A stretch of DNA of 63,261 nucleotides, counting the filler, from Candidatus Woesearchaeota archaeon (GTDB taxonomy: Archaea; Nanobdellota; Nanobdellia; Woesearchaeales; B72-G16), in the NCBI GenBank assembly GCA_003650545.1. It is 3 parts of 3 records of this genome, joined end to end, with 100 filler letters (N's around TTAATTAATTAA, not from the genome) between each part and the next. Parts side by side here need not be neighbours in the genome. Positions count along the whole stretch, not along the records: positions 53,414 to 63,261 come from QMQO01000038.1; 2 more parts are not named here. The stretch is one strand, 5' to 3'. The first letter of the stretch is position 1. Every line of letters starts with the position of its first letter. Under the pieces are notes generated by a model. That model was not told the DNA's origin and made no database searches. It saw nothing but the letters and a program-made list of their open reading frames with translations. A program made the translations under genes and the position numbers. Positions 3,255-62,907 of the stretch are shown piece by piece.

Positions 3255-3439
3255 AATAGATTAGTAAATAGTATTAGAGATGATGGATGAATAGGTTAGA
3301 GATAGATGAGATGGATTAGTTTATAGAGATAGATTAGAGATGATAGATGAATAGGTTAGAGATAGATGAGATAGATTAGTTTATAGAGATAGATTGGAGA
3401 TGATAGATGAATGGGTTAGAGATAGATTAGTAAATAGAT
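3255..3439. repeat. ~60-bp tandem repeat (~3 copies), cytosine-free on + strand
   Basis: Blocks starting 3301 and 3361 are near identical (gatagatgagat[g/a]gattagtttatagagatagatt[a/g]gagatgatagatgaat[a/g]ggttaga), with partial copies either side. Confidence 0.85.
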
Positions 3440-12666: not shown

Positions 12667-13269
12667 ATGCAACATTACAAACAAACCACATCAGCAACGT
12701 GTGCAGCTGCAGGACTTTTAATGATTCTAAACCACTTTGACAAGACATTCAAACTAACGAAGGAGAATGAGCAGAGAATCTGGATGAGTACTGCAACAAT
12801 ACCTATTAGGGGTTCTTCCATATATGCATTAGCAAAATTTGCAAAAAAGCAAGATATCCCAGTAAGGGTTGTTGTTGGTCAGCAAGAATACAAATTCCCA
12901 AACTATCGTTTTAAATCTTACAAGAAAAGTGAGATAGAAGAAGCAGCCTACACTTCTGAGCTTTATTATAAAGATGCCGTACTTGAAGGTATCCCTATAG
13001 ATGAGCGCGAAATGAGGTTTGAAGAAATTGAAAAACTCCTTAATGAAGGAAAAATATTATTATTAAGGATAAATAGGGCTGTTATATGTGAAGATACAAA
13101 CAAGACAGAATCCAATTATATGCCTGTATATGGAATCAAAAATGGCAAATATTTGCTAATGGATCCTCACACAGGTCCAAAAGAGCTTGATCCTGAAGTA
13201 ATGAGAGAAGCTTTTGAAACAGTCAGAACAAAAAGCCACAGAGACTACAGAATGATTATATTTGGTTAA
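12667..13269 (+). CDS. Peptidase C39-like (papain fold) protein
   Basis: N-terminal YKQTTSATCAAA (Q...C), later hydrophobic strand and MDP motif; Asn appears where the catalytic His is expected. Confidence 0.7.
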   Translation: MQHYKQTTSATCAAAGLLMILNHFDKTFKLTKENEQRIWMSTATIPIRGSSIYALAKFAKKQDIPVRVVVGQQEYKFPNYRFKSYKKSEIEEAAYTSELYYKDAVLEGIPIDEREMRFEEIEKLLNEGKILLLRINRAVICEDTNKTESNYMPVYGIKNGKYLLMDPHTGPKELDPEVMREAFETVRTKSHRDYRMIIFG

Positions 13270-27626: not shown

Positions 27627-27726
27627 NNNNNNNNNNNNNNNNNNNNNNNNNNNNNNNNNNNNNNNNNNNNTTAATTAATTAANNNNNNNNNNNNNNNNNN
27701 NNNNNNNNNNNNNNNNNNNNNNNNNN
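27627..27726. other. Artificial contig-joining linker
   Basis: 44 N + TTAATTAATTAA (stops in all six frames) + 44 N. Confidence 0.97.
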
Positions 27727-27789: not shown

Positions 27790-28293
27790 ATGAAGATACT
27801 TGGAGTTATAGAGATACTTTCCAGAGACCTTTCTAAAGGTTTAACTATAAACCAGATCTCTAAGTTGTTGCATAAGAGTTATGCTGCAACTAACATGCTG
27901 GTTAGAGGGATGATTTCTGATGAGATTCTGAATAAACTGATTGTTGGCAATGCTATTCTTTGTACACTAAACCTTAGAAATGAATTGACAAGGGCTCTAC
28001 TGGCTGTTGCTAGTGTGAAGAAGAAGCAGACAGATTCAAGCTGGAAAAAAAAGATTGACATTGAGTTGATCGATGAGCTAAAAAGGCGTTTTACTATAGA
28101 ATGTGTCTTTCTGCAAGATGATAAACTAAACATTGTGTGCAGGAATGTTCTGGCGCTACAGGAGTTTTTGAATGAGCGCAAGATAAGAGCTGCTGTTTTT
28201 GAGGCTGCAGATTTTCATGTTAAAAAAGATCTAAGCAGAAGCTATGTTATTTATGGTTTTGAAAGGTTTTGGGAGCTGATTGCAAATGCGTAA
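27790..28293 (+). CDS. Winged-HTH protein with degenerate nucleotidyltransferase-like C-terminus
   Basis: LTINQISKLLHKSYAAT HTH; C-terminal VIYGFERFWELI; stop overlaps the next gene's start. Confidence 0.6.
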   Translation: MKILGVIEILSRDLSKGLTINQISKLLHKSYAATNMLVRGMISDEILNKLIVGNAILCTLNLRNELTRALLAVASVKKKQTDSSWKKKIDIELIDELKRRFTIECVFLQDDKLNIVCRNVLALQEFLNERKIRAAVFEAADFHVKKDLSRSYVIYGFERFWELIANA

Positions 28294-29266
28294 AGGACAG
28301 GTTAGTTTATGGATCATTACAGGCATCATCATTTTGATACTTGTGATTATTGGCGTTGTACTTGTTATAACTACAAAAAGGGCAGAGATTGTGCCAGAGC
28401 TTGACATCCTGCCGATCAGGGCTTATGTTGAGGGCTGTGTTGATGATGCTGCGTTAACAGGAATATTTACAATCGGAAAACAGGGCGGATATATCTTTCC
28501 TAAAGGCGATTATGTTTTTGTTGAGTTTGATTTCGTTAGTGTGGGCTTTAACATAGACGAGAATGTTTTGGTTAGCGAAAAAGAGATGGAGCAAGAGCTT
28601 GCTAACTACATCAAGATTGTGTTGCCTGATTGTGTTGGAAAGGTTAGACAGAGATTCGTTGATTACGGGTTTGAGTTTGGCGATGTTGATGTGGATGTTG
28701 ATATCACAGATGCAGATGTGCATGTGGATGTTTTGTACCAAGTAAGTGTTAGGAAAGGCAATGCTGCTGCAAAAATTGAGAGGTTTGTCAATGTGTACGA
28801 CATCAGACTTGGACATGCAAGAAATATCGCTGACAAGATCATAGATAGTATAAAAGCAGATCCTGATTGGATTGATGTAACTACCTTGGGAGAATATGAT
28901 ATGAAGGTTAATCTTGTGCCGCAGGATCTGGCCACAATCATTTATGTTTTGAGCGAGCCCAGCAGATATGGCGATACTTTTGTGTTTGCTTTTGGTGCAA
29001 GGTACAAAATTAATCATGACCCTGTGCTAGAGTTACCAGACACACTTGAACTGAAGAGGGGCGAGCGTTTTGTGTACCAGGTTGTTGCAACTGATGATGA
29101 CGGTGACAGGTTAACTTTCTCTGATGATGATGGGATGTTTGACATTACAGATGACGGGTTGATTGACTTTGTTCCTTATTTTGAAGGCAGATATGATGTT
29201 AAGATCACTGTTGTTGATGAACATCGCGGGTATGATGAAAAAGAGGTTAGGTTTGTAATAACATGA
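28286..29266 (+). CDS. Type IV pilin-like protein (class III signal peptide) with C-terminal Ig/cadherin-like domain
   Basis: [23 protein letters not shown]-terminal NHDPVL...[12 protein letters not shown]...[14 protein letters not shown] overlap with the giant gene. Confidence 0.78.
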
Positions 29267-35200: not shown

Positions 35201-38200
35201 ACTGGCAAACGCCAGAATTTAGAAGTTTTTCAGACCTTACCCAAGCAGAGCGTTATCGAAGCTGGATTTCTAGGATACAAGTGCCAGAAGAAGAATGGAG
35301 CCATTCTCAGATGGTTCTTTCTGCAAATAAAGATTTTATGATAGCAAGCCAAAAACTTGAAGAGCAATCTGTGGATGGTAGTGTTGCAAACACTCTAGCC
35401 AAAGATGAATTAGCGAACACAGTAAAATACCTTACAATAAAATTAGAATCACAGATAAATGAACATAAAAATAAGAATATAGAATATAACAGAGGTTTTG
35501 AATGGCTATCGTATATAGAGCCATGGCGTTATGTTGGTGCTTCTAATCTAAATGATTTATGGGTTACTCTTGGATTCGGTGATAGGGACAAGGTTGAGGC
35601 TTATAATAATGCCGAAGAAACCAAAAAAAATATTGAAGATTCCATTGAGAACTATCGTAATAACCCAACTGAGGACAACTATAACAAACTAACTGATGAA
35701 TTAGATAGCTTAGATAAATTAGAAAAAGCTGCAGATTATGCTTATCACCAGGATCATGGCTTTATAGCAGAGACACTTAATACAGAGAACGTTGTTAAAA
35801 CTGCAGCTGCATTAGTTTTTGCAGAGGTTGCGCCTGCGTTGATTGGGTTGAGGGCTGCAGAGGTGGGCGAAGCTGTTGAGACTGGCATAAAAGCAAAACA
35901 GATTGCAAGCAAAACCAGATTAGCAGTTAGAATGGCTGAGGCTGCCAGAAAGGGATTTACCACAGGTATTTTATTTGAGACTGCAATGGAATTTGCAGAT
36001 GGAAACTTCTTTACTGTGGAAGGAGCGCTTGGTGCTCCAGAAAGAATGTTGACTGGCGCACTTATGTTTGCAACAGGTGGTGCTGCTGAAGTAGGGATTA
36101 GCCCTCTTACAAACATACTTAGATATAGAAGCGAAGCTGCTGCACGGAGGTATCTTACTGAGACAGGAGCTAAAAGATTGCAATCTGCTATAGCTGCGAG
36201 AGCATGGAATACTGGTGCCTCAGCAATTAATTTTGGGGCGATGACAGCCGGATTTGCTGAGGTTAGTGCTCTGCAAAAGGGAATGCTTTATCCTGATCCA
36301 AAAACATTGGGAGAGACAGCTGTGACACTTGGTCTGTATAAGGTGGTTGGTACAGGCGTTGGTAAAGTCTTAGAGCCTGTAGAACGGTTGAGGATTATAA
36401 AAAACCTTGAAATCAGATCAAAAAAATACGATGAAAAGATAGGGGAATTTAACCAGAAAGCACAAGATATACTGAATGGAGTTAAGGATGACACAACAAG
36501 AACAAAGATAGAAAATATTTTTCAAAAAGAGATTTCTTACAGAGAAAAAGCTGAAGAATTGTACAAGATAGAAACTGAAAATCGTGAACTGAAGACACAG
36601 ATTGAACAAATGGCTGATTTTCTTCGTCAGGCTTCTGGTGCTAGATTAACCAGAGATTATCTAAATTATGAGATCGAGATGCGCAAACATGAACAGAATG
36701 TGAATGAAAACAATATAAAATCAGAAAAGTACTTTGACCAGATTGAGAAAGTTATTAAGGCAAAAGAGACACTACTGGAAACAGAATATGAGGAAGGAAT
36801 TATTAATGATCAGGGATATGACATTGGAAAAAAAGAGATCGAACTGGAAAAAAAGCTTTCAAATAGGAAAAAACTGTATCTAAATCTTAAAGAAGCTAAT
36901 GAAGAACTAGGTGAGCTTGAAGCTCGAGGTAAAATAGAAAATTCTGAAAAAAAACTAAAAGAGAACTTTGAGCTAATAACAGACATTGAAGAAAGTGATT
37001 CAAGAATCCGCTCTCTCAGGGAAGAACTTAAAAAGAATAGAGCCGGGGAGGTTGAGGCTAAGATAAGAACACAGACAGAGGCAAACATCCTTACAAAAAT
37101 GGTTGAACTGAAAGAAGCATTATTCAAGAAAGATCTGCTAGAGCAAAAGATTAACACTGAAAAGCAAAGACTAATCCTAGAGAAGATGCAAGAGGGTCTT
37201 AGTTTTGCTAAAGCCAAAGCTGATGTCGAGGCTGTATTCCAAGAAAAGCTAACTGAGTTTGAAAAAGGAGAAGTTAAAAGTAAACATGGATATGAAGAAC
37301 TGATAAGACTGATAATAGAAAAAGGTACACTAGAAAAGGATATTCCTAGTATAGAAACAGAGTTGAATGAGTTAAGTTATCAACAGATTCAGGAAGTAGA
37401 AGAAGCAAAAAAAGAAGCAAAGAGAATTGCTAGGGAAATTCGTAGGTTTAAAAAAATTGAAAATAGAATTAAGAATAAGAATATTAAACCTAATGTTAAA
37501 AATATAATTGATCTTTTAGAGAACAACAGACTTCCAACTGACCTAGAAGAACTCAAGAACACTGTACTGGAAAATTTAAACAGAGAAGAACTAAAATTCT
37601 TAAATGCACGTATTGAAGAAGCTGAGAAGATTACTGGGTTAACAGCAACAGAAGAACAGGCTGCAACAGCAATAATGAATAGTCTAACCAAAAATAGTTT
37701 AATAATATCTGTGCCGACAGGCAGAGGTAAAAATGTTTTCATCACACCAGAAATGGTGTTGACTGAGTTGCGTGCAGGAAGAAAAACCCTGATAATTGAA
37801 CCTGATGATAACCTAAAAAGAGCTACATATAATTATCTTGTTGAAAAGCTCAAAGGAAAAGTCAGAAGCATAGTTCAACCAGAGATTGACATGCGCACAT
37901 TAGATGACAGGATTGCTGCAGATATTCAGAATGCAGATGTTGTTGTGATAACTTTAGAAGAATACATTAATATCAAAGGTGCAGAGAGAGCATTAATTGG
38001 CAAGGAAAATGAACTTGCAACGGGAATCATGAATGATTTTGGAGAAAGATTTAACATATTTGATGAAGCACATGAAATTGCAAATGCTAATCCTCTTATC
38101 TGGGTGAGGGCAGAAAAACCACTAAAAAGTATAGAAGGTGGCAGAGAAAAAATATTCGCTAACAAAATCTTGTTTGAAGTTCTTAAAGAAGTAGGCAACA

Positions 38201-41200
38201 TAAAAACAGGAGAAGTTTTTGAATTTAATAAAGAAATTTTGAAGACATGGGATGATCTTATAAATGAGGTTAATGATGAATTTAAAAATGGTAGGATAAC
38301 TGAAGAAGAGAAAAATAATAAGCTAAAACAGATTGAAAATAATAAAAACAGAGCAAGATATCCGAGTGAATTTAAGCCTGAGATATTAAAAGAAATATTA
38401 GATAGGATTAAAAATGAGTTACGGGCTCAAGGCAAACTAACAGATGAATTTAATGCAATGAATGTTAATGACCTAATATCAGGCGAAAAGGATATCATCA
38501 AACCATATACTGAGTTATTACAAGGATATAGCCAAGCATTGGCATCAAGATATTGCGAGGATTATGCTCTGGCTGAGCAAGGGGCTTCGCCTACAACACA
38601 AAGAAGGGCAAACACAAGACTGTCGTTTGGAGACATAGATATGCAGATTGCTCTGAACACGCTTGTTGGAAAGGAGGATGTTTCTCAAATCAAAGTTAAA
38701 ACAGATGCTATTCAGACAGAAATAACTGATGTGCTTGTTGATCTTGCTAAGAGAGGAACACAAACACGATTTCTAACTGCAACGCCAGAAAAAGTGAATA
38801 AACAGCTCAGAGCACTGCTTGGATCTGAACAGTTTACTGTTGCATCAGGACAATCAAGGTACACCAATCTTGTCGATATCATAGAAAATGGTTACAAAGA
38901 GATATTTCCAAATGAGAGGCAAATAGTCAATCCCTTGCCAGGGGATACTAAAGTTGAATTTAGAAAAGTTGAGGTTAACGAGAAGTATTTAGATGATATA
39001 ATAAAGGAAGCAGAAACAAATGTAATTGTTGTACATGATGGTGATATTTATAAATCATTAATAGACATGAGTAAAAATGTTCTTCCTGAAATAGATTCTG
39101 TACTATACAGAAATCCTGATGCTAAACCTGGTGAAACAGTTGGTGGAAAATATTATGAGATTCGAATAGAAGATAGAAATTTTAAAGAAAGCCCTGTTAA
39201 AGATCTGAAAAAATGGATTCTTGATAAGCAACTAGCTGACAAAAAAGTTCTAGTTCTAACTAATCAAAGGGCTGGCCTAGACCAGCTTACATTAGGTTCG
39301 TTTGAGTATGTACGTGATCAGGTCAAGAATGGAGAGGTTGCAGAGATACGCTTGTTTGATGAAAATGGAAAGATTAGAAAGATAGAGAAAATTGATCCAA
39401 ATGAAAAGGGTGTTGATGAAGCTCTGGAAAAACTTCAAGATGCGTATAACAAAGGAGGTAATGAAATTGTATTACAAAAGTTCACAAATGCAGACAGGGT
39501 TAACTACCGCATTGTTACAAGCGAATTAAATGAAATCACAGAGTTGTTACAGGAACTTGGTAGAAGAAGAAGTTCTGCAGACAGGCTTTTTATTGACTAC
39601 ATTGGGCCGGAGAAGATGGAACTGAATAAGTTTATCGAGACTAGCATGAGAAATGAAAAAGCTAGTGAGCAAGAGAATGTGCATCGTTTTGATCAAGACA
39701 TGGCAAGACAGGTGTTGAAAACTCTTCTTGGCGAGGCTAAAGAATTAAGGCCTGATAGAGCTGCTGAAATAATAGAAGCAATAAAAGAGTTTGATGATTT
39801 GGCTCGATCTAGAAGAACAACACTTGAGTACAAAGACATCACAGGAAAAGAACAGTTTGTTGACACACTCGAATTTATAACTGACTATGCAAACGAGATT
39901 ACGAAAAAAGAATGGTTTAATGAGCTTCCAGATGGATTAAAAGGGAAAATAACAAAGATTGCTGATTATGAAGTGCCAAAAGCTAAAAATATTAGGCTAA
40001 AAGGTAAAGGAGATGAGAGAACTCTAAGCACAGCAGAAGACCTAGAGACATTTATGGATATATTACAAAACATAAGGGCTGAGTCTGATTGGCCTGCTTA
40101 CATAAGGACTGGAACAGGTGATGTGGCACAGGCTGTAAGAGCAGAAAATGTTGCAGAGATGCTACCAACAATGGCTTTAAAAACTCGACCTGAGGGAGCA
40201 CAAGAAGCAATAATTATAACAGCTCGTGAGATAAATAATGTTAAACTGGAAGCAGATAGGGAAAAGGTGGATCCTGCTGTCTACGCCCTTCAAAAGAAAC
40301 AAGAAGAAACCAGGTCTGACCAAGCCATGCCCAGAATTTTAGTAGAAGATGTTCTAGCTAAGGAATTAGGTTATGAAAGATCTCGAGAAGGTTACATAGA
40401 TGTAGATCTGAATAAGCTTGCTGAAAATGATGAAGTCCGAGAGAGAACTGCAGCATATAGATACATACTAGACCATCAGATGGCAACACATGAACAAGAA
40501 GAAGGGAAAGTAATAACTAAAATAGGCGATAAAGTTGTAGAAGAAGAAGAACAAAAAAGGTATGTTGAGTCAGCATTTGCCCTGGCACAGATGATAGAAG
40601 ATAACCTGATAAATGCACATATAGACTCTGAGAGAAAGATTGTTTTGGACCAGGGTTTGAGTGATAAGAATGTAATGCAAAAGCTTAAACAGTTGTCTGA
40701 TAATGGTGTGACTGTTAAGAAGGAGATAGATGGATTACACTGGTATATTAATGGATATTCAGAATCTGTTGAGAAAGAAACTATAGAAGATATTCTTGAG
40801 GGCAGAGAGCCAGGAATAAGACCTAAGATGCGAGCTAAAGAGCAAGCTAAAAATCAGGTAAGAGAAATCTTTAAGGAGATAAGAAGTGTAGATGATCGAA
40901 TAAAAATTCTGGAACAAGTAATAGATAGTATACAACAGCTAGAACAAGCTGCAATATCAACAACAGAAGCAGAAAAAATTGGAATTAGTGAAGAGGAAAT
41001 TAATGTACTCAGTGATGCTTTAGAACAGATAGGACTAAAAGAGTTGACTGATGTTTTGAAAGGGATGTTGAAAAAAGCAGAAGCCGAGCAAAAGGAACAA
41101 GAGCAAAAGAAACAAGCAGAGATAAAAGCAAGAGAGTCTGCAGGGTTGGTGTCGGCTGATGAGATTCAAGGTTTCCTAAAAACCCTAAAAACACAGACTG

Positions 41201-44200
41201 ATTTATTTAAAGATGTTAAGGGTGCTGTTTTTGAGGTAGAAGCGGATGACGATGACAGGAATGTGTTTACTATTGGGTTTAAAGGGACTGATAAAACTGG
41301 AGAGGTCAAGGCTAAAGCAAAGATAACACTCCAAAAAATACAAGGAGCAACAGAAGATCTACAGACCATGACTCTAGAAATTCTTGAGCTGCCTGCTGAA
41401 TCAAAACATAAACAGAGTTTCTATGATTCAATTGAGAATTATGCTCATTACAAAGGAATTGAACAGATTGATATAGTAATCAAGCCAAACTTGGTTGCAA
41501 GACTACTACCTGGATCTGATTTTCGGTTCTTGCGTAGAAATGGTTTCATTGTTCACAAAGAAGATTTTACAAAAACTGGGTTATGGGAGATAAGTATGAT
41601 AAAGCCTCTGACACAAGAAAGGCTTAATGACTTACTGAAGTTTATCAGTGCTAAGCAGGATATTTTAACAGAGGATAGAGATAAACTAGAGAGTGAACTA
41701 GGACCAAAGTTTGCAAAATACCAAGGTCTAATCGATAGGCTTGCAGATATAAAAACCAGCTCTATTAAAGCAGCTGTTGCAGGGGATCAAGCTAGACATA
41801 CTTTAATAGAATCATTGGTAAAAACTGTTCTTGGTTATGGTATTGTTCAGAACATCATGGTCATGACTAGCTTCTTTAAACAAAAACCGATTAGTCTTCA
41901 GACATCTTTCACTGAGAGGAGTCTGGTTACAGTAACAGAAACAGCACCACAGAAAGTTGAGGCGCTGGCGGAGGGTGCTGGGCGTGCTCGGCGTTTAGTT
42001 ACTAATGTTCCTAGCATTGGCTTTACAACATTTTTCTTGCAGGCGTTTGAAACTTTTGCTATGTTTGAGTTTATAAAAAGATGGCGTTTCGCGATGCCTG
42101 TCAATGAAAAAAACTTTGTTAAAACCAGGATCGTGCCTGTATTAAAGGGAATGGGCGCATATTATGTTAGCACAAAGATACTTCCTGCCTTGACATCAGC
42201 ACTAAACATGGGCGCAGCTATTGCCAACCCAATAATTGGTCTAACATTTGGCTTGACTGCAGGCTATACATACTCTGCTATCTCGCCAAAAGAAGACAAG
42301 ACTGCAAGCTTTGTCTCGTTGGCTACATTTGGCTTGACCACATTAGGAATGATGTTTGTGCCGCAGGTTCCATTGGTTGCATGGGGGGTTAGCTCGATTG
42401 CGATACCTGCTACAATCGCACTTATAAGAGGGTGTAGCAAGATAGCCAAAGATGTGGGAGAGGAGCTCTGGAGTTTTAATGTTGGTGATTTCATATTCAG
42501 GTCAGCATCAGCAGCAACAGCATACTATTTTGCAAGGATGGCTGCTGGGGCTGCAACAGAAGGAATGTTAAACACTGGTTTTCTTATCCCTGCTGGTGTT
42601 GCGGTTACAGCTGGTCTAGCTGCTGTCGGCAGCTTTGTCAGTATCAGAGGTGTAAATCAAATCACTGCTGGAGTGATCGACAGCTTTAGGAATGTCCTGA
42701 GAACCGTGAGGAAGCTAAGAACTGACCAGAGAGCACGGTTTTATGCATTAACAAGGGTAGCTGCTGCAGGAGCTGTTTGGTATGGTTTAACGCATTTTGG
42801 GGCATTGACTGGCATGATCGGAGCAGCAACACTTCCTGTTGCACCGTTTGTTGTAGGTGCAGGGATCGCTGGCTTTGGTATATATAGCTTGTTTGGTTAT
42901 AAACCATTTGTAAGAGCACTCTCTACAGAAGCTGCAGATATTGGGATAAAATTAACTATTAGATCTGCACTAGCAGGTGGTATGCTAAGTTTGGCTTACA
43001 GAACTGGACTTTTCACTGGCATAGGAAGCATACCCCTTTATCTACTTATAACAGGGGTGCATGTCAGCTCGTACATTGCTGGAAATAAAATAATCGAGAC
43101 TCTTAGAGGTTTGGTGTTCAAGGATATTTCAACAGAATTACTTGATAAGATTAAGGAGGATGCTGCAAGAGAAAATATAAATGTAGATTCATACAGGGTT
43201 AAGCATGTTGGACCTGAAACACATATCATCTTTACCTACAATACAGAGAATGTGTTTGGCATGGTGATCAACACTCAGACGCATGGCCTAACGGTTTCTT
43301 CTTATAAGGAGGATGTTAAAAAAGAAGATGAAGATGTAAGCAGAATTGTAACTGAGAATATTAATAGTATTCTGGATGAGGATTTGGATAAGATACTGAA
43401 ATTTGAAAAGCAACTTGAAGATCTTAACAATAAAATAAAGATGACTAAAAAAACAACAAGACAATTGAAAAGACTGGAAAAAAGAGGGAACCTAAGAGGG
43501 GTAGAGACGCCTTTGCTGAATAGGGTTAGAGCAGACATTAAAAGTCTATATGAAAAAACAAGAAAAATGGTTAAAGTTCCTATATCTAAAGTGAGGATAG
43601 AAGAAGTAGTAAAGAAAGGAGTAAAAATAATAAATATTGAACTTCAAAAAATAAGCCCTATATTGTCCAAAATTAGTGTTGGGATGCCTCAGCTTGGAAG
43701 AACTACTGGCATAACAATAGCTATAGGTGTTGGTGTTGGTGGTTTCACCTTAATCGCAGCTGCGCCCTTTGCAGGTGTTGTTGCTGTTCCACTTGGGATG
43801 ATTGTTGGAGGTATAGGCGTAGTTAGTTATACACTAATCAATGTTATGAGAGAGATAACATTTGAAACACCGCTAACACGAGAATTACCAAAAATAGATG
43901 ACAGAGCTGAAGTGTTGAGGGCAGCTTCTGAAAGAAGAATAAAAACTATTACCTCACCTGTAGATAAAAGAACAGTTGTGATTGGAGATATCCATGCTTC
44001 GTTAGATGCTTTGAAAGAAAGCCTTATTGCTGCAGGCTTGATTGATACTGAGGATAATTGGATTGGAGGCGATAATCGCTTTATACAGACAGGAGATGTT
44101 ATTGATCGTGGCCCTGACTCTATTGAGTGTTATGATTTCCTAAGGGAGCTACAACAAAAAGCAGAGAGTGCTGGCGGAGAAGTTGTGAGACTGCTTGGAA

Positions 44201-53313: not shown

Positions 53314-53413
53314 NNNNNNNNNNNNNNNNNNNNNNNNNNNNNNNNNNNNNNNNNNNNTTAATTAATTAANNNNNNNNNNNNNNNNNNNNNNNNNNNNNNN
53401 NNNNNNNNNNNNN
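53314..53413. other. Artificial contig-joining linker
   Basis: 44 N + TTAATTAATTAA + 44 N; supplies the false stop of ORF 53366-62305. Confidence 0.97.
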
Positions 53414-56400
53414 GCCTAAACCTAAGTCTTCTAAGATCGCGCTGAATTCGGCAAAGCTGCCGTTATTGAATTCCTCTATCCAGGTGTTGTATTCGGCAAT
53501 AATAGCTGCCTGCTCTTCTAATACGCTGGAGCGCCAGGTTTCGGGGTCAGCGCTATCATCAAACCAAATACCCCAGGAACTCTTGAAATTGGCATATTTA
53601 TTATAAAAATCATTAATAAATACAAGTAAATTATTAATATCTAAACTATTTTTCAGATTATCTGCAGCAGTAGAAACGCTATTGGCGTCACTCTGGGAAT
53701 TGCTATCTGAATTTAAAGAAGGCAATAGATCTTGGAGTATGGCATTGAACTCTGCTATTTGCTGCCAGGGGATAAAATAGGTAAGTGAACTTAAAGAAAA
53801 ACTGCTTGCTCCGTTTACTGTGCGCTGCTTGAACGCATTTAAAATTGTTGAATCAGTTATGTCGTGGTCTCCAAACCAACCAAGAGTAGGATTCCATTCC
53901 CTCGTATCAAACCACTTGGCAGTTTTGATAGTTATGTTTCCGCTGTTATCGACAGTAAAATTATAGCGATAATTTACTTGGGGTAAACCCTCTACATACT
54001 CAATAATACCGTTAACATAGCCTGAGTCGCCTATCTTTATAATGCCGCCGGCCATGCCGCGAATTATCCTGGCACCATCAGCCCTGGTATATTCTCCTTT
54101 GCAGAAAAATATTTTATCTCCAAAAGAGGTTTTATTGAAATAGAAATAACTTCCCGCATCGACTACTGAGCCATCCGCTAAGGTATAGTTTGAATTATTA
54201 ATTAAAACTCCGTTAGTTACCGCTGCTGTAAAAGTACCTTTACTATTTCTGGTTAACCTTACTACCGTACCACCGGCTAAAGTAAATCCGTTACCTAAAT
54301 CGATAGGCGTAGAGGTTTTAAGAATCTGAATTGTGCCATAGTATGGAATGTAGGTACTTTTGATCTCCAGCCCAGAAGAAGCATTGATCATTTTTCCGGT
54401 ACTATCTACCTCTACCCACTCAGTCTGGCTTCCGATTTTAACTGAAACCGCTGTTGCCCCTTGAGTCCAGCTACCCTTAATTACAGGTGCCTGAGGGACG
54501 TCAAAGTCAGTTGCAGTAGCGTAAACAGACTCTGAAGCTAAAATATAACCAGTCCAATCATACTTAGCCATAAATTCATCTATTGTTTCTGTAACTACTT
54601 GACCATTATCATTGTAGATTACAGTATGGGCCTGAAGATCAATTTTAAAATTAGCGATATAATGGCCATTGCCGCTGTTTTTATCAATCACGTGAACAAC
54701 CTCAATGTTGTTTAACTCTGCGGCGTCTTCAAAAGATATCTGATAACCCTCTAAGTTCAATTCTAAACCATATTCTTGAGCTAATTCATTGGCTATTAGC
54801 AGGATATCATACATTGAAGTTTCGCCATTTTCATCTATGGGCAGCCTTTCGCTGATTACTTCGGTAGGTATGGAAGGCAGGATTTGTTCTACAACAGAAA
54901 CAGCGCAGTTATACTTTATTGCTTCTGTAGGGGGTCCTCTGATCAAAAGTCCGGCCGAATCTGCATCTATTACTAATTCTTCCTGTTCCTCTAAAATTTG
55001 TCCGGCAGTATAAGGAACATACATTGTGTTTACTCCGGTTGAGCTAAGCCCTGCGGTATTAGAACCTCTTGTATTCCTTAATTGGTTGCGATTAAGCGGC
55101 CTTCTGCTATTTGGAGTATTTACAACCCGCTGGGCCCTTAATAAATTCTGAGTATTTGCCTCTACAACCATCCTTTCGGCGATTTTTAACAATAGCGCCT
55201 CCTGGGCCTGAACGTTTTCTGATTTTTCTAGCAGCGCCCTTTCAGAACTAGTGAGGCGGATGTCTTTAATGGAAATTGTATAATAAGCATCTCCTTCCAT
55301 TCTTCTTCTTGCTAATTCTTCAGTCAGGCCTACGCGCTGAGCCCCCTGGGCCAAATCAACTTTGGAAAGAAGACTAGTTAATATTATCGCTGCCCTGGCT
55401 TTTGCCTTAGGTGAAACTTTTGCAATATTCCAGGCATCAATAAGCCCCTGCACCAAAACAATCCTAGCTCTGGCTGGATCTTTTTCTATTTCAGCAGTAA
55501 CCCTGCTAACTTTATTTGCAAAGTCAAAAACTCCATCCCTTACTACCGAAATTATTTCTATATCTCTATTATTTAACCTGCCCTCAGCTTTTTCTGCTAA
55601 TAACTGGGCTTCGGTCTTTAAAATCGCATCCCTGTCAGCACAGGACAGAAGAATTAAGTCTGTCTTCTCTCCCTTGGGTGATTTGAGAAAATCAATGACA
55701 GCGCTGACGTTATTACGCGGCATATCTTCCATGCTTAACTTTATAGCAACCTTGGAGATTATGCCATCTGGTTCTCGTCTTAATTCAAGTATATTTCCTT
55801 GCTGCACCCCTAAGACTCCTCTAAAACTATCTGTGTAATCCTTTGCAGTAGCGGTAAGCCCAATAAAACCAGCTGCCTGATTAAGTGCTTCGGCATAACT
55901 TATGGCATCTCTAGTTTGGCTTCTTAATGTATCGGCATACAAGCTATTTGATGCATTATGCTTAATCGCCAGAAATCTTCCCCTTGCATTTAATCCTGAA
56001 CCGTCATCTCCGAAAAAGGTATTCGGTAAAGACTCTCCTGTCCTGAGTAAATCGCGGGTGCAGTATCCGGTTAATTCTCCATTTTCATAAACCAAAGAGT
56101 AGGCATCTCCTGGGCCATATTTCATTAAGTCTGCTACGGCATCAAGTAAGAGTTGTAAGTCACGGTCACTGTAATTAATTAATCTGTTTTGCTTTCCCTC
56201 TTCGCTCTTTAGGGCATTACGATATCTACTGATAATTTCATTGCGTGCTGAACTTACGAATTCAAAACTAAGCCTTATTCCATTTTTTACCCCGCTATCT
56301 GTCTGACTTGCCCTATTAACAATAACTGTATCCAAATCCCTTCCGCCTATCTCTGCCAAAGCACAATCCCATAGCGCCTGATCACTCGCTCTGCTTCTTT

Positions 56401-59400
56401 CGATTGATAGGATTTGGCGCCTTGCTGACCACCTTGCAACTGGATTACCTTGGGTTGCCTGAATATCTAATGCTTCCCAGATACCCCTGGTGCTTCCAAA
56501 AACCAGCTGCGGCCCAGCGAGCCCTGCCTGAGGTTCATCTGCGAAAACAAAACTACGGTTGAGTTTTCCTTCGCTGGCTAATCCCATCAGCGTAGTATTA
56601 TCTACAATACTGATACCCTTAATCGGCTCTGTTAATGCGGATAGCTCTGTTTGCCCTTTGTCAATACTAATAGAAATGCGCTCAAAACCCTTTAATCCTT
56701 CTGCGTTTCTGAGCTCTTCGATCTTGCCTGCTTCTGAAGTTCCAAAAACAATTCTTGCTTCAGGATAGCGTTCGCAGATATACCTTGCTACAGGTAAGGC
56801 CATAGAAGTCTTACCCTTACCAGCGTTATCGCTAATAATTAAGCGCACTGCCTCTCCGCGCATAGAGGCCTCATAAGCCCTGAGCATCTCCCAGCCGCCT
56901 CCGATTTGGAAAGCATCCCATTCCCACTCTTTCCCAGCTGCCTGCATATCTGCCTTTAAAGGCAGAACTACCTTCTCAACAAAATCCCTATATGGAGAAT
57001 CAGAAGAAGCAATTGCATCTGTACCTTTTATTTCAACTTGTTTAGCTAAATCAATTATCTCGTTTCCGATGCGTTCTGCCTCTTGCTTATTTATGGCATC
57101 GAAAATTTTATCGGGGTTAGCAAGCATATACTGCTGCGAGGAAACTTCAACTAGCTCTCTGCCCACAGGAATTCCGGCAAGAGAATCTCCTTCATTGGAA
57201 TTTAAGATATCTTCATTCTTATACCCTAACTCTATCAATCTCTGATAATCCCTTAAGGCAATCTCCTGCTTTAAGCTGCGCATTCCGCCGCCATAAGCAG
57301 GAACCAACATAAAAGCTAAATAACCAAGCAGCTGTGCGGTTTGCGGATCTAAACCGGCAGTCTCCATTAAAAGGCTGTCCACGCCAGAGGTAAAGGCAAC
57401 AAAGAAACCTACTGAATCCAGTTGCGCTAGTAAAGCAGCGGTACCACTGCGTCTAATGCTCTGTTGGGTTATCTCGGCAAATGCTGTACCTAATTTTTCT
57501 TTGGTAATTGTATTTAAAATTCCGCGTGCCAGTGTTCTGGGAATTCCGACTAAGCCTAAATTAGCTGAGACCGCTTCTACAGCGTCTCCTATAACCGGTA
57601 CCCCCTTAAAAGTCTCGCCTTTAAACTGGAATACTCTAATAACCGGGCCAAACCATAAACCAAACTTGGGTGACTCTGCCGAATGTAAAGCTAAAGCCTG
57701 ATACCAGGGTAAATCTGTTTCTCCTTTGGGGCCGATAATACCCTCCAATTCTCCTGCCCAGGCTGAATCCCATAATGCCTTGCCAATTGCAAATAAAGGC
57801 CCGATGTAAACGAAGTGCGAGGCTGATAAGAGGCAGTCACCAGCCAAATATTCTGGCCTTGCTGCATATGTTTTAAACCCAACTGCAACTTTGCTTGCCT
57901 GCCTTAATCCTATCCTTAATATTTTATGGTTCTCACCAAAGCTGCCCACCCATTTTGCTGCATTACTAATCCCAGGAGCAGAAGTTCCTAACCAGCCTAA
58001 TAAGCGGCCTGTTCCCTGAGCGCCTGCAGAGAATAAAAATCCTAAGGAAAAGCCTTTTGTAAAACTCTCCATTGACTCGGCCGGAGAAAGAAATCCATCT
58101 CCGCTAATCAAAGAATAGGCATTGTCGCTTACAGCATAAACTCCGCCCCAATACATTCCAATCTCTGCCATGCCGATTAAAGCCCTTAAGGCAGGTGATT
58201 TTATTCCCTGGGTTTCAATTATTACCGGCCTGAGGACTCCTTTTGCAACCGCACGAATTGCAGGTCTGACCCCTGCCTTTACCGCCTGGCCTAAACCTCT
58301 TAAACCAAAACTTACTGCTACCGTACCTGCTTTGGCAGCTGTGCTCACTAAAAGGCTGATTCCTGAACCCACCATAGAAAGGCCACCCACTATGCCAACT
58401 GCATCGCAGATAAGATCTAATCTAGTATAATTTTCAGATAAATATATTCTTGCCCGGCCATTAACAAATCCTTCAGAGTTTTCCGGATAAATCTCTCTGA
58501 CAAATGTCCCCCAACCGGTAAGGCCCCAGGTCTGGCGTATATGCTCTTCAGCAGCGCTAAATTCAAGCTCTCTTACTTCCTGGACTACTTTCATCTCGCC
58601 GCTTTCATTTACCAATAATACATTCACTAATTCATAAGGCTTGTAATCTGTCTCCCAGACCCCGGCATTAAGCCAACCTAATGGACCACCCTGCTCTTTT
58701 GGATCGCCATATTTATCTAAAGACCCTTCGACATGCCTGACCTCAGCAATACCCTGTCTTGACCTTATGTAATTCTTTACATAGTCAGGTACTTCTGATT
58801 CTTTTACTTCCAATCTCTGAATCGAGATATAAGGATCAAAGTATTCAAGTTCGATTCCATATGTGGCGGTATTTAAATTGACAATTATAAGCGCGCTATC
58901 GCCTTCGCTCTCTCCTTCTAAGGTAGATTCGCTAGATTTGTCTGTTAAAATGATTGTATCTTTGTGGCTATCAAAGGTACGGCCTAAGCCGGTAATTTCT
59001 ACTTTGCCATGGACAATATTAGATAAATTTAGGAGGTTGAAATAAGCTACAGCGTCTTCAGGGACAATTATGGAATTGTTTTCATCCCAAGTTAATTTAG
59101 CTGAAGCTTCTTGATATCCAGCTACAGCTTCTAGGGCTGGACTGGCTACCTCCATAGCAGCGCTGAGCTGATTATAAACATCTTCAGGCATAGTTAAAAC
59201 CTCTGTTTCTTCGTTGTATTCATAGCCTTCTACCCCTTGTCTGGCCTTATCTAAAGCCTGATTATATAAAACCTCGTAGTTATTTAGCTCTTCGCTGTAT
59301 TCTCCGCCTGACCAGCCGTTTCCTTCAGAATAAACACCGGCTAGCCTTACTAATTCACTTTGGGCATTAACCCAATTGTCATAATTAGCCAACCACTCTC

Positions 59401-62305
59401 TTGCCTGCGGGGTTAAATTATTCTCTGCTTCATTGAAAGCCACGTCTATTTTATTAATTGCCCCCTGATTATGTTCATTTAACTCATTACCTACAAATTC
59501 CTCAACCTGGCCTATCACTTCTTCGGAAAGATTCTCATTAATCCACTCATTAACTAAAATCTGCTCTTCTTCACTTAAAGGTTCTCCTTGCGGAGCAGCA
59601 AATAACTCATCTTTATTCTGCTGGATATAAGTTACTAGTTCTTCCAGGCTATCTGCATCTAATTTGCCGTGCAGTAATTCATTTTTATGGTGTGCGTCCC
59701 AAAGCGAATAACCAGAATAACCGGCTAATGCTATGCCAATTACTACAAGGGCGATTATTATCGGAAGGACCTCTCCCTGTATCTGCTCCAGTTGGCTTGC
59801 AGTTAAAGGAGTGATTCCCTCTGGCTGCCCGGCACAAAGAATAAATCCTTTGCCATCAATTAAGGCAAACTGCTGAGCAAACTCATCCCTGGTTAAATTT
59901 ACTTCATTACCGTTAGTCTCTATAACTACATTGTGTTCGGTAACTTCTTTTATCACAACATAGTGGCCTTCTCCGGCATTGGGTTCGGTATAAGCAATAA
60001 CCGGCTGGTCAAGCCTAGCAATATCTTCTATGCTCACTAGATAACCATTATACTCAAGGCCTGTACCCTGCTCCAAGGCTAAGGCTACTGCAGCCAAAGA
60101 ATTACCTTCTTCTAAATCAAGGCCTAATGCACTATCAACTACATCTAAGAAATTGGCTATATCTGCGCGAGAAACATCCCTTCCCCCTGTTTCGTCAAAC
60201 ATAGTATCCACGGCATTAACCGGGCAGTCCGCAGTATAAGAAGTAAAGCCCATACTTGTCCAATCATTCCATCTAAATTCCCAACCTGAAGAGCCGATCT
60301 CAAAATTACCTACAAAGTCTCCGTTTTTAATATCTGCGGCAGTATAAAATAAAGGGTTATCGTTGTAATCGATTCTTGCTTCATAGCCGTCCTTGCCCAG
60401 GGAAAATTCTAGGTCTACCGGCCCAACCTGCAGCTCTGGGTTAATATTTCCGCCTTCAAAACTAAGTTCTGCGCCTAAGACTACATTGTCGTTCCACTCT
60501 ACATTGGTCCCGTTAGTCAGCCCTACTGAGGTATTAATATCAAGCGCGCCAAGGTCCAAATCAATCTTTAAGCTAAAGTTATCTATACTTATATCTACAT
60601 TAGCGGTTGTGGCTGCTTGAGTAACAGTATCAACCACTGCGGTTGTTGCAGTTGAGACTGCATCAAAGACGTTTCCTGAGGCTGAATTATAGGTTTGAGT
60701 TTCGGCACTGCCGCCAGTAATTGCTTCCGCTACGCTATCAACCACTGCGGTTGCTGCAGTTTCGACAACATTAACCGCTGTATCCACTGCTGTGTCCACC
60801 AAGTCAACCGCTGCATCTACTACACCATCGACAAAACTGCAAATATTTGACCAACCCCAGGAACCGGTTACTGCCTGCGCTTTTGCTTCAGATACACCTA
60901 TACCAATCCCAGATTGAATAGTTAGGGCGTATCCGCTCCAAAGTGCCTCAAATTCCTCTTTTGATGCGGTTTTTGTTACTCCGTTATCTATATAGGTAAC
61001 TTCCTCAGCAGTAGCCTGAGTAACCACTACATAGTGGCCAGCTCCATTTTCCAGGTTTAAATGGACAATTACAGGTCCTTCTATGCTGGCTAATTCCTGA
61101 TAGGTAAGCTCAACTGCGCTCAGGTCTAAGCCATATTCAGCAGCAACCTGCTGAATGCCGTACAGGGAAGTTTCGCCATTTTGGGTATAAATGGCTAAAT
61201 CCTGGGCTAAAATATCCGGGCTTATATTAAGAATTTCTGATAGGGCTAAAACTGCGCAATTATAGTCTAATGTGGGGGGGTCATTATTGTGTAGAGTTAT
61301 GGAATCTATGGCTTGTGGTACAGCAGAATCATCTGTGGATACTCTGCCTGTTTGAGCTTGATTTATGCTTGAATTTTGTTCTGGATTAGCAAGAATAAGG
61401 CCGCTTTCACCTGTATCTTGAGAAGGCGAATCGGTAGGAAGTGCAGCGTGATCGTCATATGGGACCCCCTGCGGAGGGCCTTGGCTAGGTGGCTGCTCCC
61501 AATCTATTTTTGATTTTCCGATAAAGGTCTTAATAAAAGATAAAAGCCGGCTATTTTCCAGCCAGCCTTTAATTGTCTGTAATACAAAATTCCCAATTCC
61601 CGGGTTATTTTCCTGATTTTGGCTATTTTCAGAATTAATTACCCCAAATCTAATTATATGCCTAAAAATATGCTTTAAAGGCGGAATTATCACTTCCAGG
61701 CCGAAAGCCGAAGCCTTAATCTTGTTCTCGCTAGTAGGCTCAGCTTCATCTTGGCCCTCTTGAGCTTGTTCGCTACCTATTGAGTTTGCGCCCGTATTCT
61801 CAGATCTGCGTAACGCAATATTATTTAATTTATTTAATAAAGCTGTTTTTATATCCTGGAGGGTTTCTTGAAAAATCTCTATTATGCTGATATTGGTATT
61901 GGCCTGATTATCTATATTTTGAGCCGTTTGTACCATAATATCCGTATCACAAACCGTATCAATAACTTCGCTATATTCATTATTTTCAACAGGTTCTATT
62001 GAAATAGTATCTTTGATTGACCTGAAAGGTTCTCTATACTGTGGCAAATTGCGGGATTTTTCGTCTAAGATAAGATTTGTTTCAGCATGAGCTGAAGGTA
62101 ATAAAAACGAAGATATAGCTTGATATATTTGCCATAAGAATTGACCTGGACCAGATGAGGCTTGCTGTTGGTAGGTATTGCCTTCATCAGGAAGAGAATA
62201 AGTATAATCAGCCCTGGCTGCCCAAGTTACTTCAGAAAAGGTAAAAACTCCGACAATTGTCAGCGCGATTATTTTGACCCAAATTTTTTCTCGCCAATTA
62301 ACCAT
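53414..62305 (-). CDS. Bacterial giant secreted protein, 3'-truncated at contig end: three C39 peptidase-like domains, membrane helices, SecA-like ATPase
   Basis: SD gagg; signal peptide MVNWREKIWVKIIALTIVGVFTFSEVTWA; three C...GHY units (C350/H424, C694/H781, C2467/H2548); SecA-like DAFQIGGG, NAGKGKT, FADEPQ, GLTATA, QGAQRVG; runs into the N-linker. Confidence 0.88.
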
Positions 62306-62589: not shown

Positions 62590-62907
62590 TTATATTGAGG
62601 ATTTTTTGGCTTGACGGTATTTGCGCATATAATCGCGCATATAGTGCCGGCGTTGGGTTTTTCGTTTTTTTGCGTATTCTTTGAGGTGCTCTTTATGGGT
62701 CTTTTTCCAAAGCTGAATATAACGGCGCCTAGTCTCTTTCCAGAAGCGCTCCTGGCCTAAATATTTAAAATAACCAGGGTTATTCTTACGCCATTCGCGA
62801 ACATTCTTATGTTGTCTTAATTTTTGGCATTCCAGTCGAGAACAAACCTTTTGTGAAGGATGGTATTTATTCGGGGTGAACTCTCTTTGACAAATTAAGC
62901 AACGCAT
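62590..62907 (-). CDS. Small basic hypothetical protein with CxxC...CxxxxC zinc-binding motif
   Basis: MRCLICQREF...KVCSRLECQK followed by Arg/Lys/Tyr-rich helices. Confidence 0.7.
   Translation of the reverse strand: MRCLICQREFTPNKYHPSQKVCSRLECQKLRQHKNVREWRKNNPGYFKYLGQERFWKETRRRYIQLWKKTHKEHLKEYAKKRKTQRRHYMRDYMRKYRQAKKSSI

Follow-up and report, generated by a model that had tools for sequence, protein, structure and literature searches.

The ATPase embedded in the giant protein P0001 is most probably a SecA-like module of the kind published for the giant proteins of Omnitrophota. P0001 is encoded in a stretch of 63,261 nucleotides (the window, meaning the whole of the DNA analysed here) taken from an assembly deposited as Candidatus Woesearchaeota archaeon (GCA_003650545.1), where its gene occupies the minus strand of the last of three contigs. 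Overall, we favour a fuller reading that blends this SecA-like module with self-export of the giant, and we regard that blend as somewhat better than an even bet; the specific self-export mechanism is itself a tentative and rather doubtful proposal. A second giant protein, P0002, lies on another contig of the window and shows a partly similar layout, and the likeness between the two is weighed below.

The window comprises contig A (1-27626), contig B (27727-53313; 25,587 bp) and contig C (53414-63261; 9,848 bp), separated by artificial spacers (44 N, TTAATTAATTAA, 44 N) at 27627-27726 and 53314-53413. Because contigs B and C were joined artificially, P0001 (contig C) and P0002 (contig B) are not genomic neighbours.

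A probable SecA-like ATPase within P0001

The P0001 product is identical to a database record of 2,964 amino acids (P0003). Its gene and principal domains are as follows:

53414..62305, minus strand: giant gene P0001, with its ATG at 62305, at least 2,964 amino acids (aa), 3' end cut by the end of contig C
62216..62305, minus strand: N-terminal signal anchor, aa 1-30, MVNWREKIWVKIIALTIVGVFTFSEVTWAA, matching the family motif; hydrophobic segment at aa 8-12
60896..61300, minus strand: Peptidase C39 domain 1, aa 336-470 (Pfam PF03412, E 4.4e-30, best stretch 349-465)
59876..60076, minus strand: Peptidase C39 domain 2, aligned core aa 744-810 (phmmer with domain 1, independent E-value (iE) 1.7e-6)
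59708..59770, minus strand: strongly hydrophobic helix, aa 846-866, LPIIIALVVIGIALAGYSGYS (Kyte-Doolittle mean of at least 1.6)
57206..58420, minus strand: Gly/Ala-enriched, weakly hydrophobic tract, aa 1296-1700 (composition and segment scans)
55106..56968, minus strand: probable SecA-like superfamily 2 (SF2) ATPase, aa 1780-2400 (AlphaFold2 model, Foldseek, ESM Atlas, 22 relatives)
54527..54934, minus strand: Peptidase C39 domain 3, aa 2458-2593, downstream of the ATPase (phmmer with domain 1, iE 7.3e-16)

The first C39 domain retains its Cys (in NCAV) and His (in GHYVVV), and Pfam recovers two C39 stretches in the protein. A spacer of about 430 aa separates the helix at aa 846-866 from the Gly/Ala tract. 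After the ATPase come a low-complexity linker, the third C39 domain and a beta-rich tail, in that order.

Within the ATPase, the following motifs were located; all those quoted for P0001 in an earlier note on this DNA, made from the sequence alone, were recovered within about 20 nt of where it had placed them, in the minus-strand open reading frame (ORF) 53414-62305:

56920-56882, minus strand: WDAFQIGGGWEML (aa 1796), translated motif
56804..56827, minus strand: Walker A or motif I, NAGKGKTS (aa 1827); G52 and K53 invariant in the family alignment
56528..56545, minus strand: motif II, FADEPQ (aa 1921); D144 invariant, E145 in at least 90% of family sequences
55871..56527, minus strand: insert of about 220 aa separating motif II from motif III, in the place occupied in SecA by the preprotein cross-linking domain (PPXD); contains DAYSLV (aa 2067) and RTGESLPNTFFGDDGSGL (aa 2088)
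55844..55870, minus strand: motif III, GFIGLTATA (aa 2146); G367 invariant, T374 in at least 90% of family sequences
55286..55450, minus strand: motif V-like QGLIDAWNIA and motif VI LAQGAQRVG...RRRMEGDA; N514 invariant in the former, Q541, R545, R556 and G559 invariant in the latter
55354-55328, minus strand: LAQGAQRVG (aa 2318), within motif VI

SF2 motifs I, II, III, V and VI are present in the correct order and at the expected spacing (GKGKT, DEPQ, LTATA, QGLIDAWN, QGAQRVG..RRRMEG), and the columns that are invariant across 11 family ATPases are the catalytic SF2 positions (GK, DE, T, Q..R, R..G). The strongest evidence for a SecA-like fold comes from structure prediction. Using an alignment of the P0001 ATPase region with those of 10 relatives (A1; 11 sequences, shallow), we obtained an AlphaFold2 model with a mean predicted local distance difference test (pLDDT) of 81.8 and a predicted template modelling score (pTM) of 0.79. 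The model shows a first nucleotide-binding domain (NBD1), a large insertion, a second nucleotide-binding domain (NBD2) and then one long C-terminal helix (domain residues 586-617). In a Foldseek comparison with the PDB, the first 22 listed matches (ranks 1-24, with gaps) were all SecA or SecA2 (E 2.5e-13 to 6e-9), with SecA alignments covering about 640-710 columns. TMq peaked at 0.60, against SecA from SecA-SecY complexes with engaged substrate (6itc_A, 5eul_A). MDA5 was the first match listed that was not SecA (E 8e-9, TMq 0.31), followed by DinG, XPD and LGP2; the E-values of MDA5, DinG and XPD were 4-5 orders of magnitude worse than the best SecA value of 2.5e-13.

Further support for this assignment comes from the ESM Atlas, in which the best match of the P0001 ATPase was a SecA_DEAD/SecA_PP_bind cluster (score 0.91, 183/256 shared features). 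At the sequence level, hhalign of A1 against Escherichia coli SecA returned a lone weak match (E 0.011, probability 3.9%), which placed columns 295-374 on SecA residues 333-401, the stretch that returns from the PPXD into motif III.

Several observations weigh against this assignment. Neither Pfam SecA_DEAD (PF07517) nor SecA_PP_bind (PF01043) matched the P0001 ATPase at E <=10 or any of the 11 family members at E <=1, and NCBIfam gave no match to the domain. The A1 profile likewise found no SecA among PDB sequences, returning weak P-loop matches to DnaA (0.0095), FANCM and UvsW; PADLOC and PDB-sequence searches with the 621-aa ATPase yielded nothing relevant. Because sequence methods miss SecA, the call rests on one shallow-alignment model together with a language-model lead. 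TM-scores to most SecA entries were just 0.40-0.47, with root-mean-square deviations of 11-18 Å, although low TM-scores are expected if domain orientations differ. Apart from the one long helix, the helical scaffold of SecA with its two-helix finger, the helical wing and the C-terminal tail are all absent from the P0001 ATPase, so engagement of SecY cannot be assumed. Finally, Walker A is degraded in some family members (GKE in two), which are possibly inactive.

Some of these same observations would suit a different account, in which the domain resembles SecA only in the predicted model, has no role in protein export and is either an SF2 helicase or translocase acting on nucleic acids or an effector domain that is delivered. 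The failure of Pfam, NCBIfam and PDB-sequence searches to find SecA and the loss of its SecY-contacting parts are both compatible with such a function. So are a weak ResIII match in one family member (E 0.0051), the presence of DinG, XPD, MDA5 and LGP2 in the Foldseek listing at E ~1e-8, and the DEAD/ResIII/Helicase_C_2 clusters that take Atlas ranks 2-3 for P0001 at 0.89. There is also a precedent in the available text of Zhang et al. (2012), where SecA-like, helicase-related domains are listed among the C-terminal domains of effectors of an intracellular symbiont. We nevertheless consider a helicase or effector quite unlikely, given that SecA and SecA2 fill the head of the Foldseek listing with TMq values of up to 0.60, against 0.31-0.43 for helicases, and that the 183 features shared with the best Atlas cluster, SecA_DEAD, exceed the guide value of 170. 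Moreover, the ATPase adjoins a hydrophobic cluster in the family.

Relatives of P0001

P0001 is the product of an Omnitrophota-type bacterial lineage. An exhaustive HMMER search with its ATPase recovered 23 proteins at E <=1e-3 among 1.84 billion cluster representatives (P0001 itself and 22 relatives), 19 of them at E <=1e-10. Seven of the relatives carry source names; among them, P0004, P0005, P0009 and P0014 come from Omnitrophota/Omnitrophica and P0012 from Saganbacteria. A word-index homologue search with P0001 found one relative, P0004 from Omnitrophica. A scan of GTDB with P0001 as a single protein found nothing, and the same scan with a three-sequence alignment found two loci, both in Omnitrophota metagenome-assembled genomes (MAGs). 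Records of ten relatives from the HMMER search yielded six with a source name, and for four of those six the annotation reads only "C39 domain-containing". As domain databases label these proteins by C39 only, the architecture is undercounted wherever a survey relies on Pfam SecA_DEAD.

In length the relatives run from 299 to 5,716 aa, many of them being partial records. One of the two GTDB loci (L003; JACQCF010000010.1, 90431-112071; Omnitrophota) is spanned from end to end by one frame of more than 7,213 aa, which neither starts nor stops within the 21.6 kb. Ahead of the ATPase in this frame, at a distance of 848-1,224 aa, are five hydrophobic segments, and near the end of the locus Pfam detects a second helicase C-terminal domain (Helicase_C, E 8e-5).

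By Pfam, C39 was present in P0005, P0007 and P0009 (E <=1e-3), and the P0004 match (E 2.4e-4) fell slightly under the gathering score; phmmer with C39 domain 1 of P0001 found the domain in P0004, P0005, P0006, P0007, P0009 and P0020. Members with intact N-termini have in common a signal-anchor motif, K-x-W-[IV]-[RK]-[VI]-[VI]-A-[FL]...VF, followed by a C39 domain, and the motif was seen as FK.WIRVVAF..VAVFLPEQ.AQA.EYD in P0004, P0005, P0006, P0009, P0011 and P0020. The P0001 N-terminus, MVNWREKIWVKIIAL..., is a shortened form of this family motif.

The closest relative, P0005 (4,868 aa, from an Omnitrophota MAG), carries a DnaJ J-domain at aa 2646-2696 (Pfam E 5.4e-9) between its tract and its ATPase, where P0001 has none. 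The P0005 J-domain suggests that the ATPase side is cytoplasmic and chaperone-linked.

The Gly/Ala tract and membrane topology

The earlier note had described a long Gly/Ala-rich hydrophobic tract ahead of the P0001 ATPase. The enrichment held up, with 25.7% Gly+Ala in aa 1296-1700 compared to 16.2% in aa 1-1295; the membrane character of the tract proved weaker than described. We scored hydropathy by a strict rule (Kyte-Doolittle mean over 19 aa of >=1.6) and by a relaxed one (mean >=1.1 with at most one charged residue), which is crude and involves no trained predictor. One segment of the tract passed the strict rule and five passed the relaxed rule, the candidate membrane helices beginning near aa 1302, 1375, 1489, 1624 and 1657.

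This weak signal bears directly on whether the ATPase sits beside a membrane anchor, and it counts against the favoured reading, as does a content of 16% charged residues in the tract. Topology adds a further difficulty. The five tract segments, taken with the helix at aa 846 and the N-terminal anchor, make seven, which would put the ATPase outside the cell; with an odd count, at least one of the membrane-helix calls must therefore be wrong. Judged by hydropathy, the number of helices in the tract, and even its insertion into the membrane, appear uncertain.

The tract could accordingly be read as a soluble or amphipathic helical region, leaving no anchor or pore beside the ATPase. Besides the single strict segment and the charged residues, two kinds of evidence would favour that reading. 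First, a Pfam search of the three hydrophobic tracts gave nothing above threshold. Second, conservation is poor: the P0001 tract is weakly homologous to the tract found in the same order in P0005 (E 3.6e-6 in a 24-sequence set), and P0020 reached E 0.016, so that P0005 alone aligns and the tract is barely conserved. Transmembrane predictors are also described as disagreeing on Omnitrophota giants in the accessible part of West-Roberts (2023; 10.1101/2023.11.21.568195).

The distribution of segments argues the other way. Five relaxed-rule segments fall inside 360 aa of the P0001 tract, as opposed to two in the remaining 2,264 aa of the protein, and a similar upstream cluster recurs in the family: all 11 members with at least 700 aa of upstream sequence (L003 included) have at least two relaxed-rule segments within the 1,300 aa before the ATPase. 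On balance, a soluble tract seems fairly unlikely to us, and we retain the reading in which the segments preceding the ATPase are associated with the membrane.

Origin of the contigs and surroundings of the P0001 gene

Contig A is, by its gene content, archaeal. It encodes a ribosomal protein uS7 that scores above the eukaryote/archaea equivalog cut-off (223.5 bits vs 200) and below the bacterial one, together with a type II methionine aminopeptidase, a Rad50-like ATPase and a DUF2070 protein. The tetranucleotide signatures of contigs A and B correlate at r = 0.92, exceeding the half-versus-half value within either contig, while contig C correlates with contigs A and B at r = 0.54-0.56. GC content is 0.416 in contig C compared to 0.334 and 0.370 in contigs A and B. 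From the tetranucleotide signatures, it follows that the giant P0002 of contig B is probably of archaeal origin and that P0001 comes from another organism.

Other features of these contigs were noted in passing. On contig A, a free-standing C39-like peptidase of 200 aa (12667-13269, plus strand; DUF3335 E 7.6e-16, Peptidase_C39 E 3.9e-8) adjoins glycosyltransferase, glycoside hydrolase and Rad50-like ATPase genes. A strong, sustained positive GC skew (0.15-0.40), together with a positive AT skew, runs along the P0002 coding strand at 28001-53232, and the skew is negative across the minus-strand gene of P0001. Directly upstream of the P0001 gene lies a Cys-rich, very basic ORF of 105 aa (62590-62907, minus strand), possibly a zinc-ribbon regulator. 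Two promoter-like sites, at 62942-62914 and 62550-62522, match 11/12 of the sigma-70 consensus, one before the 105-aa ORF and one before P0001. No sec genes were found on contig C.

The second giant, P0002, and a proposed shared module

P0002 is the larger of the two giants, and the following parts of it bear on the comparison with P0001:

29263-53232, plus strand: giant P0002, 7,989 aa (contig B)
35770..36372, plus strand: Gly/Ala-rich tract, aa 2170-2370 (29.9% Gly+Ala vs 14.0% in the whole protein)
37630..39582, plus strand: orphan SF2 (DEAH-type) ATPase, aa 2790-3440 (Pfam DEAD E 1e-6 to 3e-7)
41800..43902, plus strand: main transmembrane cluster, aa 4180-4880 (10 relaxed-rule and 6 strict-rule segments)

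The earlier note had seen in both giants the same core of Gly/Ala-rich membrane helices followed by a SecA-like ATPase, and had inferred a module conserved across domains of life. As to layout, the echo is real: in P0002, too, a Gly/Ala tract precedes SF2 motifs in the same order. The P0002 ATPase lies about 450 aa after its tract, with PTGRGKNV at 2818, FDEAHE at 2933, FLTATP at 3170 and ELGRRRSS at 3431. As to the SecA-like character of the core, the claim stood for P0001 by the AlphaFold2, Foldseek and Atlas results and found no support for P0002. The best Atlas matches of the P0002 ATPase were DEAD/ResIII/Helicase_C_2 helicases (0.93, 164 features), with no SecA cluster among the matches listed. 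Searches of Pfam, NCBIfam, PADLOC and the PDB gave a generic DEAD match only, and sub-regions of the ATPase found nothing in the PDB. Word-index searches at near or shorter lengths found no homologues of this ATPase. A single-sequence AlphaFold2 model of aa 2780-3560 had a pLDDT of 37.9, too low to judge the fold.

The remainder of P0002 also differs from P0001. Its Gly/Ala tract has one segment passing each hydrophobicity rule. The main transmembrane cluster lies 1,395-2,040 aa downstream of the start of the ATPase, with one passing segment upstream. By Pfam, P0002 has neither a C39 domain nor an ectodomain of Ig repeats. A HAS-barrel match in its tract (Pfam E 0.0043) was below threshold and was disregarded.

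Elsewhere in P0002 we observed a calcineurin-like phosphoesterase (~aa 4903-5059), a SpoIIE/PP2C phosphatase (~aa 6126-6317), at least 17 HEAT_2 stretches (~aa 6700-7300) and, by eye, HExxH-like motifs. Ser/Thr phosphatases are also among the domains of the bacterial giants in the part of West-Roberts (2023; 10.1101/2023.11.21.568195) that was available. Two small ORFs precede the P0002 gene at 27790-29266 (plus strand), one of 167 aa without a family and one of 328 aa with a Big_9 Ig-like domain; the latter overlaps the P0002 ATG by 4 nt, which suggests one operon.

Given the similar layout, we considered whether the bacterial and archaeal giants share a homologous module, a membrane pore or anchor with a private SecA, inherited or transferred across domains. 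In its fuller form this explanation has the module serve small symbiotic or predatory cells as an export or injection system of a distinct type. Several features are in keeping with it. Both proteins have an N-terminal signal-like sequence followed by a Gly/Ala-enriched tract (25.7% and 29.9% Gly+Ala in P0001 and P0002, respectively), and SF2 motifs I, II, III and VI keep a common order in the two, motif II lying unusually far from motif III (228 aa in P0001 and 238 aa in P0002). One Atlas cluster (490 aa, DEAD/ResIII/Helicase_C_2) appears in both match lists, and contig B carries the tetranucleotide signature of the archaeal contig A. Two faint alignments, both ending at motif III, are colinear within that interval as well: a BLASTP alignment of P0001 1979-2169 with P0002 2996-3190 (E 4.4) and a weak alignment of columns 170-375 of the family profile hidden Markov model (HMM) with P0002 2983-3198.

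Direct comparisons, on the other hand, gave no significant similarity by any of the methods applied. The best E-value of BLASTP between the two giants was 1.3, a local 16-sequence family HMM was not significant against the whole of P0002, and P0002 was not among the 23 matches of the exhaustive HMMER search with the P0001 ATPase. The profile-profile alignment that the earlier note had proposed as a check aligned the Walker A loop only (hhalign of A1 with the P0002 ATPase, probability 0.6%). No sequence similarity was found between the two hydrophobic tracts.

These tests are low-powered, hardly detecting even E. coli SecA from the family profile, so that their silence is weak evidence against a shared module. 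Shuffle tests were uninformative either way, and the family HMM barely separates genuine SecA from shuffles: the full-sequence score of P0002 was reached by 787-802 of 1,000 shuffles and its best-domain score by 83-88 of 1,000, with 12-15, 2 and 89 of 1,000 reaching the real full-sequence score for the controls SecA, DinG and RhlE, respectively. The DinG signal was rejected as spurious, since the aligned positions were non-equivalent.

Other differences also stand against a shared module. Motif II is DEAH in P0002 and DEPQ in the bacterial family, P0002 lacks the C39 domain, its main transmembrane cluster follows the ATPase where that of P0001 precedes it, and its closest Atlas matches are the generic helicases noted above. 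In XPD/DinG-type helicases, too, motifs II and III are set apart by a large insertion (the Arch domain); such an insertion is therefore not specific to SecA, and that of P0002 could instead be Arch-like.

One further resemblance was the M(V)NWR start, which is present in both giants and is followed in each by a hydrophobic stretch. The earlier note had allowed that this may be chance, and the resemblance indeed looks coincidental: the P0001 start fits the signal-anchor motif of its own family, and neither NWR nor MxNWR occurs in the first 70 residues of any of 23 other distinct proteins compared. MVNWR was thus rejected as a signal common to the two.

Taken together, we regard a shared homologous module as very unlikely. 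On present evidence, P0001 and P0002 resemble each other in general architecture only, each being a giant membrane protein in which an SF2 motor is embedded, and no homology between them can be demonstrated.

A separate proposal makes the P0002 ATPase (aa 2790-3440) a SecA-type motor in its own right, which convergent recruitment or transfer would have put at the service of a giant membrane protein. The DEAH motif II, the 238-aa insertion, the site downstream of a Gly/Ala tract and the archaeal signature of the contig could be cited in its favour, and we consider it improbable. SecA is not known from archaea, and we found no report of a SecA-like motor in an archaeal giant protein in the literature searched. 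If the proposal were true, a giant protein with a private SecA-like motor would be a cross-domain solution of ultra-small symbionts.

Possible mechanism and implications

How might P0001 use an ATPase of this kind? In the self-export mechanism that we put forward tentatively, the Gly/Ala tract would tether the ATPase to the cytoplasmic face of the membrane, and the ATPase would act in cis as a dedicated protein-translocation motor. This motor may assist the passage of partner proteins, or of parts of the oversized chain itself, through the membrane, and the C39 domains may process the exported product.

Proteins of thousands to more than 100,000 residues pose the open question of how a cell can produce, insert and export them, and an embedded SecA-like motor beside membrane segments is the leading published idea for the giants of Omnitrophota. 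The idea of such a private motor, raised again by the earlier note, is thus already published for bacteria. What the P0001 locus contributes is a rare and very divergent branch, with 22 cluster representatives among 1.84 billion. The family is also compact (3-7 kaa, with a 620-aa ATPase that models well), which makes it a practical entry for biochemistry, and the J-domain in one member hints at chaperone coupling. A link across domains would matter far more if true, and is without support at present.

Comparison with known systems

Among archaea, the nearest precedent is that of the nanohaloarchaeal SPEARE giants, described in the available text of La Cono et al. (2023; PMC10266531) as having a signal peptide, a huge ectodomain, a transmembrane domain and a cytosolic ATPase, and taken there to be a device that a DPANN symbiont uses for secretion or injection. 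By that description, the SPEARE ATPase is VirB4/TraG-like and not SF2, whereas that of P0002 is a DEAD-type SF2 enzyme. Because this archaeal precedent uses a VirB4/TraG-like ATPase, convergent architecture is the more economical explanation for the likeness between P0001 and P0002.

The P0002 ATPase can also be compared to XPD/DinG-type helicases, which likewise have DEAH as motif II and, after it and before motif III, a large insert (the Arch domain in those helicases); Helicase_C_2 also features in the top Atlas clusters of the P0002 ATPase. Pfam, however, gives only the generic DEAD match, and phmmer against E. coli DinG was not significant (E 0.15).

For P0001, actinobacterial giant toxins offer one point of comparison. 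In the accessible part of Kaur, Burroughs, Iyer and Aravind (2021; PMC8195603), these combine a SecA-like ATPase with major facilitator superfamily (MFS) domains "predicted to facilitate their secretion". To judge from that description, P0001 is similar in being a multi-domain giant that joins a SecA-like ATPase to a multi-pass membrane part; it differs in phylum and in that the toxins have a recognisable MFS transporter, while the P0001 tract matches no family.

Compared to SecA and SecA2 themselves, the P0001 ATPase has the predicted NBD1-insertion-NBD2 fold, the SF2 motif order and the large insertion between motifs II and III. It departs from them in showing no significant sequence similarity, in its DEPQ motif II and in being embedded in a giant membrane protein, whereas SecA itself is free-standing.

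The closest likeness is to the giants of Omnitrophota. As described in the available text of West-Roberts (2023; 10.1101/2023.11.21.568195), these have many transmembrane regions, and most carry divergent SecA DEAD and preprotein-binding domains without the scaffold and wing. Transmembrane anchors are followed by the SecA-related domains, C39-like peptidases are also present, and the SecA-like domains are suggested to export the giant protein itself. Similarly, when 916 long Omnitrophota proteins are clustered by architecture, C39 and SecA_DEAD make up the two largest groups, according to the accessible portion of a 2026 preprint (10.64898/2026.06.07.730766). P0001 resembles these giants in the phylum of its named relatives, in the order of transmembrane and then SecA-like parts, in its C39 domains, in the absence of the SecA scaffold and wing, and in its extreme sequence divergence. 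It differs in size, P0001 and its 22 relatives being smaller (records of 0.3-5.7 kaa, many partial, with one GTDB relative of more than 7.2 kaa) than the published 30-147 kaa, and in that the ATPase of its family goes unseen by PF07517 and PF01043 (11 members), unlike the domains of the published giants. Supplementary tables of the published Omnitrophota work may already include this family. In either case, P0001 is an unusually divergent addition to the described kind of Omnitrophota giant.

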